Positions 21,493-21,530 of a stretch of 64,000 bases of DNA are shown here, in pieces (the stretch's first letter is position 1; each line of letters opens with the position of its first letter). The position numbers and the translations under genes are program-made. This stretch comes from Escherichia coli O157:H7 (GTDB taxonomy: Bacteria > Pseudomonadota > Gammaproteobacteria > Enterobacterales > Enterobacteriaceae). A model generated the notes under the pieces. It was not told the DNA's origin, did no database searches, and saw nothing but the letters and a program-made list of their open reading frames with translations. The DNA lies in the NCBI RefSeq assembly GCF_013167455.1, contig NZ_CP038328.1; one strand, written 5' to 3'.

Positions 21493-21530
21493 AACTGTCG
21501 ATACGTACAGTATAGGATTTTTATACAGTG
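21493..21530 (-). promoter_or_regulatory. tandem LexA boxes of ydjM
   Basis: Perfect CTGT-N8-ACAG palindrome (ctgtcgatacgtacag) abutted by a second half-matching box (cactgtataaaaatcctata on the minus strand), 15-50 bp upstream of ydjM. Confidence 0.65.

Follow-up and report, generated by a model that had tools for sequence, protein, structure and literature searches.

The SOS-regulated gene ydjM of Escherichia coli was reportedly first shown to be under LexA control by Fernandez de Henestrosa et al. in 2000 (Mol Microbiol 35:1560), from Northern blots of lexA+, lexA(Def), and lexA(Ind-) strains; the same study is said to list both ydjM boxes, and the LexA ChIP-chip work of Wade 2005 reportedly covers the gene as well. 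Like cho, ydjM joined the SOS regulon via genome-wide box searches. The gene appears in an E. coli SOS gene list as an inner membrane protein (PMC6590174), and its expression clusters with that of recA, lexA, recN, sulA, umuD, and others (PMC4576408). RNA-seq under AZT recorded a 2.5-fold induction of ydjM and an 8.6-fold dependence on cleavable LexA, as judged from wild type versus lexA3 (PMC11228462 Table 1), with a heterology index (HI) of 9.0 for the ydjM box (PMC11228462), and a 2024 time course found induction of up to log2 2.6 (PMC11002266). A published list gives Salmonella ydjM two boxes, at distances of 14 and 32 from the gene and with HI values of 9.12 and 12.85, and a ydjM gfp fusion there gave fluorescence too weak to measure (PMC8072944).

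Two other E. coli LexA systems, recN and lexA, resemble ydjM in that several boxes of falling quality lie over one promoter. For comparison we used a symmetrised LexA matrix derived from 17 published boxes (PMC3009722 Table 4), a set that does not include ydjM and from which the cho box was omitted because cho sits in the same window. With this matrix, the three boxes of recN score 25.6, 17.6, and 13.1 bits and are spaced 22 and 18 bp apart, and the two boxes of lexA score 21.0 and 18.4 bits and lie 21 bp apart. The two boxes of ydjM share the 18-bp spacing of recN boxes 2 and 3; they differ from those of recN and lexA in being weaker (15.2 and 12.0 bits), and the second of them is without a CAG half.

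A further LexA system is found within the window itself, by which we mean the whole 64,000-nucleotide stretch of E. coli O157:H7 DNA that was analysed:

8389-8408, minus strand: LexA box of cho (ydjQ), CACTGGATAGATAACCAGCA; top hit of the window at 19.5 bits, though left out of the matrix

This site is the known cho (ydjQ) operator for LexA; the GTG start of a 295-aa open reading frame (7488-8375, minus strand) comes 13 nt after its end. Cho is like ydjM, 13 kb away in the window, in having a LexA operator just before the start codon, and differs from it in having a single box of the CTGG-N8-CCAG type. A more distant parallel is known from Staphylococcus aureus, where a YdjM-family (PF04307) gene in the SAOUHSC_02424 operon is under LexA (PMC11442139). 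That gene has a Firmicute-type box, CGAAAATATGTTCG, keeps company with UDPGP and HlyIII genes, and bears no sequence relation to the ydjM operators; the parallel suggests that a link between the YdjM family and the SOS response may be recurrent, in Enterobacterales and in staphylococci.

The ydjM locus of the window comprises the following genes and LexA boxes:

20888..21478, minus strand: ydjM CDS, 196 aa, annotated, YdjM family
21641-22309, minus strand: hxpB (yniC), annotated
19364-20755, minus strand: tcyP (ydjN), annotated
21493..21512, minus strand: LexA box 1, promoter-proximal, TACTGTACGTATCGACAGTT; CTGT-N8-ACAG core at 21495-21510, matrix score 15.2 bits
21511..21530, minus strand: LexA box 2, distal and half-matching, CACTGTATAAAAATCCTATA; CTGT half with A-rich spacer, 12.0 bits

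The genes hxpB and tcyP flank ydjM in the window and in K-12 alike. In the open reading frame list ydjM begins at a GTG (21490), upstream of the ATG at 21478 that is annotated and conserved as its start. A stretch of 1,601 bp around the gene (20800-22400) shows 100% identity with several O157:H7 genomes, and 5423 of 5426 complete E. coli genomes contain it; the 92-bp ydjM regulatory region is present in 5422 of the same 5426, identical throughout in about 3585 of them and with single-base differences in the others. From -120 to the ydjM ATG the window matches K-12 MG1655 without differences, and the only two bases that differ from K-12 lie upstream of this stretch. The boxes (TACTGTACGTATCGACAGTT and CACTGTATAAAAATCCTATA), the gene, and its neighbours are thus the same in the window and in K-12, and because the regulatory region is identical the K-12 literature applies to it directly. 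Further from the boxes, the O157:H7 record, which equals the window over the stretch searched, annotates ydjO (759-1561 in the matched O157:H7 locus L001; near 18560-19360 in the window) as a pseudogene with a frameshift; ydjO is intact in K-12.

On the plus strand, positions 21493-21530 read AACTGTCGATACGTACAGTATAGGATTTTTATACAGTG. Read in the direction of ydjM, box 2 (21530..21511) comes first and is followed by box 1 (21512..21493), at -52..-33 and -34..-15 relative to the ydjM ATG, respectively. The two 20-mers share 2 bp, their 16-bp cores are 2 bp apart, and their centres are 18 bp apart, so that two boxes fall within about two helical turns over one promoter. Box 1 fits the 20-bp TACTG(TA)5CAGTA-type site, with CTG and CAG 10 bp apart, and its spacer, ACGTATCG, is unusually G+C-containing for a LexA box. 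Box 2 has CCTA where ACAG is expected (CTGT-N8-CCTA), and hence its CAG half-site is missing. An earlier note on this DNA had described a perfect CTGT-N8-ACAG palindrome abutted by a half-matching second box directly upstream of ydjM, and this description agrees with what we find: the palindrome is the core at 21495-21510, the sole one in the window; the adjoining box is 21511-21530, with CTGT kept and CCTA in place of ACAG; and the span of 21493-21530 given for the pair is the exact union of the two 20-mers, 15-52 nt before the ATG.

The bare CTGT-N8-ACAG pattern is seen once in the window against 0.78 expected, and 55 of 100 shuffles contain at least one copy. Because the bare pattern alone is no evidence, matrix scoring was used, a check that the earlier note had itself proposed. 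The score of box 1 is expected 0.077 times per 64 kb; it lies inside the range of the published boxes (13.1-28.4 bits), at the weak end. That of box 2 is expected 0.41 times per 64 kb and is not significant alone. As a pair the boxes stand out: two boxes at least that good, 10-40 bp apart, were found in none of 300 dinucleotide shuffles (about 8e-5 expected). When the window is ranked by the LexA matrix the cho box comes first and the ydjM boxes second and third. Hits of 9.5-10.3 bits at 6011-6030, 44348-44367, and 58298-58317, each without one intact CTG or CAG, score below box 2, itself at chance level in such a window.

We conclude, with a probability of about 0.9, that the two boxes make up the SOS operator region known for E. 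coli ydjM, correctly recognized from the sequence and already published. The earlier note had spoken of "tight" SOS control and had suggested comparing induction in a LexA mutant and the wild type. The comparison is available in the published AZT RNA-seq with lexA3 (PMC11228462), and the LexA dependence reported there bears out SOS control; the word "tight" does not stand, because functional boxes with an HI of 9.0 are among the weaker ones and the induction seen is moderate. Since ydjM has been a listed member of the LexA regulon since 2000, finding the boxes is no discovery in itself. The comparative anatomy described below (a -10 element common to both boxes, a box 2 of doubtful independence, and a conserved upstream palindrome) is of limited added value.

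To follow the boxes across species, we scanned one genome per species, which gave 80 Enterobacteriaceae loci whose YdjM is at least 85% identical and which with the window make 81 sequences; in total, 85 Enterobacterales ydjM loci were matched, including Erwinia, Pantoea, and a metagenome orthologue with 62% identity (L087). In nearly all of the 80 loci the best and second-best LexA-matrix matches in the 200 nt upstream are box 1 and box 2, located at -34 and -52 from the ATG or both moved together by a few bases. Box 1 is found in 85 of 85 loci. Its TACTG, its ACAG, and four further positions are invariant in the 81 sequences, with variation confined to positions 6, 8-11, 13-14, and 19-20. 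The 22 distinct natural variants of box 1 lose 2.4 bits on average, versus 8.4 bits for as many random substitutions. LexA information content and per-position conservation within box 1 were not significantly correlated (rho -0.37, p = 0.10), a weak rank correlation that we attribute to conservation of the whole 95 bp before the ATG.

Of the 85 loci, 80 have box 2 at the same 18-bp spacing from box 1, and the CTGT half of box 2 is gone in three (L013, L025, and L087). Both boxes are kept in Erwinia amylovora and Pantoea, where YdjM is 66-69% identical, and box 1 only is kept in L087. Among more distant YdjM homologues (L088-L091, L095, and L092), a gamma-type LexA box was not found; as L088-L091 and L095 are AT-rich and endosymbiont-like and L092 has 65% G+C, the lack of a box in these loci is uninformative on ancestry.

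The comparison also points to a promoter within the boxes. The end of box 2 (CCTATA) and the CT of box 1 together form TATACT, which is invariant in all 81 sequences, matches the -10 consensus at 5 of 6 positions, and is the best such match in the region; the longer motif TATACTG(G/T) is present in the 85 loci, those of Erwinia, Pantoea, and L087 (62% identity) among them. In 84 of 85 loci the hexamer 17 bp further upstream has TT as its first two bases. We infer the following weak ydjM promoter; the start site, the occlusion mechanism, and the occupancy of box 2 discussed below are predictions as well:

21509..21514, minus strand: candidate -10 hexamer TATACT, with CC ahead of it at -14/-13; spans the point where box 2 meets box 1
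21532..21537, minus strand: candidate weak -35-like TTCCGT, 17 bp upstream of TATACT, 2/6 match to TTGACA
21502, minus strand: predicted transcription start at an A that follows the -10 by 7 nt, giving a 24-nt leader; K-12 position about 1810187

In the coordinates of this promoter model (-35 at 21537..21532, -10 at 21514..21509, start near 21502), box 1 covers -10..+10, and box 2 covers -28..-9 and lies in the promoter spacer; box 1 would thus occupy a classical occluding position. A promoter scan did not find a sigma-70 promoter, and a relaxed scan of the region returned none above 7/12, so that the occlusion geometry rests on comparison among loci. Neither ydjM nor coordinates 18101xx were found among the supplementary start-site data of Cappable-seq, SMRT-Cappable-seq, Conway 2014, and Kim 2012.

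According to this model, a LexA dimer would sit on box 1 (21493-21512) in undamaged cells, and RNA polymerase would be excluded because box 1 overlaps the 3' end of the -10 and the predicted start. Upon DNA damage, RecA-ssDNA filaments would provoke LexA self-cleavage, and the emptied operator would allow ydjM to be transcribed from its weak promoter. Box 2 (21511-21530), with its half-site CTGTAT and A-rich spacer, would hold a second LexA dimer beside the first, and it is most likely a weak auxiliary LexA site.

The principal alternative, a credible one that we nonetheless judge to have the odds against it, is that LexA binds box 1 only. Box 2 would then be promoter core, comprising the spacer, the CC, and the first four bases of the -10, and its CTGT half would be a weak, non-essential, or fortuitous resemblance to a half-site. 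Several features of the alignment are in keeping with a single operator: the CCTATA half of box 2 is invariant in 81 of 81 sequences and never reads CAG; the CTGT half is lost in L013, L025, and L087 with the rest kept; and TATACT lies 33 nt from the upstream palindrome described below in 84 of 85 loci, even where box 2 is replaced (L087) or shifted (Pantoea). The score of box 2 is one expected 0.41 times per window, and the paper that gives box 2 verbatim at -52 names it as absent from RegPrecise (PMC4576408). Against a single operator stands the position of CTGTAT, which 80 of 85 loci hold at exactly 18 bp from box 1, a register to be read with the conservation of the whole 95-bp region and the double use of the other half as the candidate -10 in mind. 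The scores of box 2 across loci (median about 10, up to 14.9 bits) overlap those of polB (13.1) and recN box 3 (13.1), the same 18-bp arrangement occurs in recN, and the published Salmonella list counts two boxes (PMC8072944). Box 2 may thus be best described as a composite, in which a LexA half-site in 18-bp register appears fused to the promoter -10. One of the 5422 E. coli genomes (NIPH17_0036, locus L096) carries a 7-bp deletion in box 2, AAATCCT, equivalent to 21514-21520, which takes out the CC and the start of TATACT and leaves CACTGTATAAATACTGTACG. With this deletion, the model of the promoter and box 2 could be tested on a natural variant.

Upstream of the boxes, the surroundings of ydjM differ among genera. 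A 14-bp, G+C-rich hairpin followed by a T-run lies at 21608-21639 (minus strand), just past the hxpB stop codon, and is likely the intrinsic terminator between hxpB and ydjM in E. coli. The hxpB gene and a terminator stand upstream of ydjM in E. coli and Salmonella, and no dehydrogenase gene lies between hxpB and ydjM in either. In Enterobacter, Citrobacter, Klebsiella-like, and Pantoea genomes, a gene for a 265-aa short-chain dehydrogenase is found between hxpB and ydjM (for example at 608-1405 of L027), and the same position is occupied in most non-Escherichia, non-Salmonella loci; the genera with this gene are without the hxpB terminator arrangement. The dehydrogenase gene ends 95 nt before ydjM in Enterobacter and many genera and 138 nt before it in Pantoea locus L086. 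Because it ends 95 nt before ydjM in so many genera, the conserved 95 bp form a self-contained regulatory module. The E. coli hxpB-ydjM spacer aligns weakly with the 3' end of the dehydrogenase gene (CTGACGGATTAATC versus CTGGCGCGTTAATC), and it may be a remnant of that gene.

These surroundings bear on a second alternative, that transcription starts further upstream and LexA acts as a roadblock. A K-12 promoter, CTGAAA-17-ATTAAT, at about 21600-21570 of the window, has been predicted from an RpoD holoenzyme SELEX peak between yniC and ydjM (PMC3946193), and LexA on the boxes would block elongation about 40-75 nt downstream of a start there. The SELEX peak itself and the lack of a strong canonical promoter overlapping the boxes speak for such an arrangement. 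However, the SELEX-predicted promoter is a match of about 7/12 whose -10 is without an A at position 2, and the SELEX resolution is too coarse to separate the two promoter candidates. Furthermore, the 21600-21570 stretch is not conserved, being occupied by the dehydrogenase gene in Enterobacter and many genera, whereas everything from the upstream palindrome to the ATG is. We therefore consider a roadblock improbable. That the boxes match by chance and have no part in regulation, as the expected 0.78 bare palindromes per window and the chance-level score of box 2 alone might suggest, is a reading we dismiss almost entirely in view of the pair being seen in 0 of 300 shuffles, its conservation over 85 loci, and the published LexA-dependent expression.

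A further conserved element lies upstream of the boxes:

21541..21553, minus strand: near-palindrome GTTACACCGTCAC, GTTAC-N3-GTNAC; conserved, centred near -45 in the promoter model

The GTTACACCGTCAC palindrome is present in 85 of 85 matched loci, and in 84 of these it precedes TATACT by 33 nt. The distance from GTTACA to TATACT is the same in L087, where box 2 is replaced, and in Pantoea, which has the box 2 CTG displaced by 1 nt. In L087, the most distant orthologue, the element is a perfect palindrome, GTTACAAGGTAAC. The 13-mer GTTACACCGTCAC was not found in the literature searched, and we know of no E. coli factor with a GTTAC-N3-GTNAC consensus. A palindrome near -45 of a promoter almost without a -35 is suggestive of a second regulator, and GTTACACCGTCAC may be its site.

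Several other identities were considered for this block. Compared by eye with the consensus sequences of CRP, CpxR, OmpR/RstA-type, and other known sites, the block has the wrong spacing or matches poorly. A left-hand GTGAC repeat of the upstream block is not kept in Escherichia, Erwinia, and Pantoea, and an RNA hairpin was rejected because its left arm is lost in E. coli; an Rfam scan of 20700-22500 returned nothing real. A second copy of GTTACNNNGTNAC in the window, at 33663-33675 (GTTACGGCGTCAC), lies within the 3' end of the pheS CDS and was taken as chance.

Should a second regulator act here, ydjM may not be a simple two-operator SOS gene: box 2 would be mainly promoter core, and the palindrome would bind a regulator needed for the promoter to fire. 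We raise this possibility tentatively, as a somewhat unlikely one. If true, ydjM would respond both to LexA derepression and to another signal, which might be membrane or envelope stress. Upon expression of the TisB membrane toxin, ydjM rises together with Cpx-dependent genes.

The product of ydjM was characterized by the earlier note as a small inner-membrane protein of unknown function, and this is no longer entirely so. YdjM matches Pfam PF04307 (E = 7e-36; 123.8 bits against a cut-off of 29) and the NCBIfam equivalog PRK11648, 'metal-dependent hydrolase' (375 bits against a cut-off of 216). Among 40 diverse homologues, down to 31% identity, H6, D46, D48, H71, H76, and H113 are invariant, and H49 and D117 are kept in at least 90%. 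This His/Asp set is suited to metal binding, and YdjM itself is a putative membrane-bound metal-dependent hydrolase. A phospholipase role with a zinc phospholipase C or alpha-toxin-like fold has been proposed for the protein (PMC8557891); a confident YdjM model and fold comparison did not confirm the proposed phospholipase C-like fold. A predicted protein of 7287 residues (P0121) has 105 separate matches to YdjM residues about 34-78 (E = 1.6e-177) and represents either a very large tandem array of the metal-binding segment or an artefact of assembly or gene calling. Two modest points of value are left, the putative biochemical role of YdjM in the SOS response and the regulatory map of ydjM, which could guide work on why the SOS response controls a membrane hydrolase-like protein in Enterobacterales and staphylococci alike.
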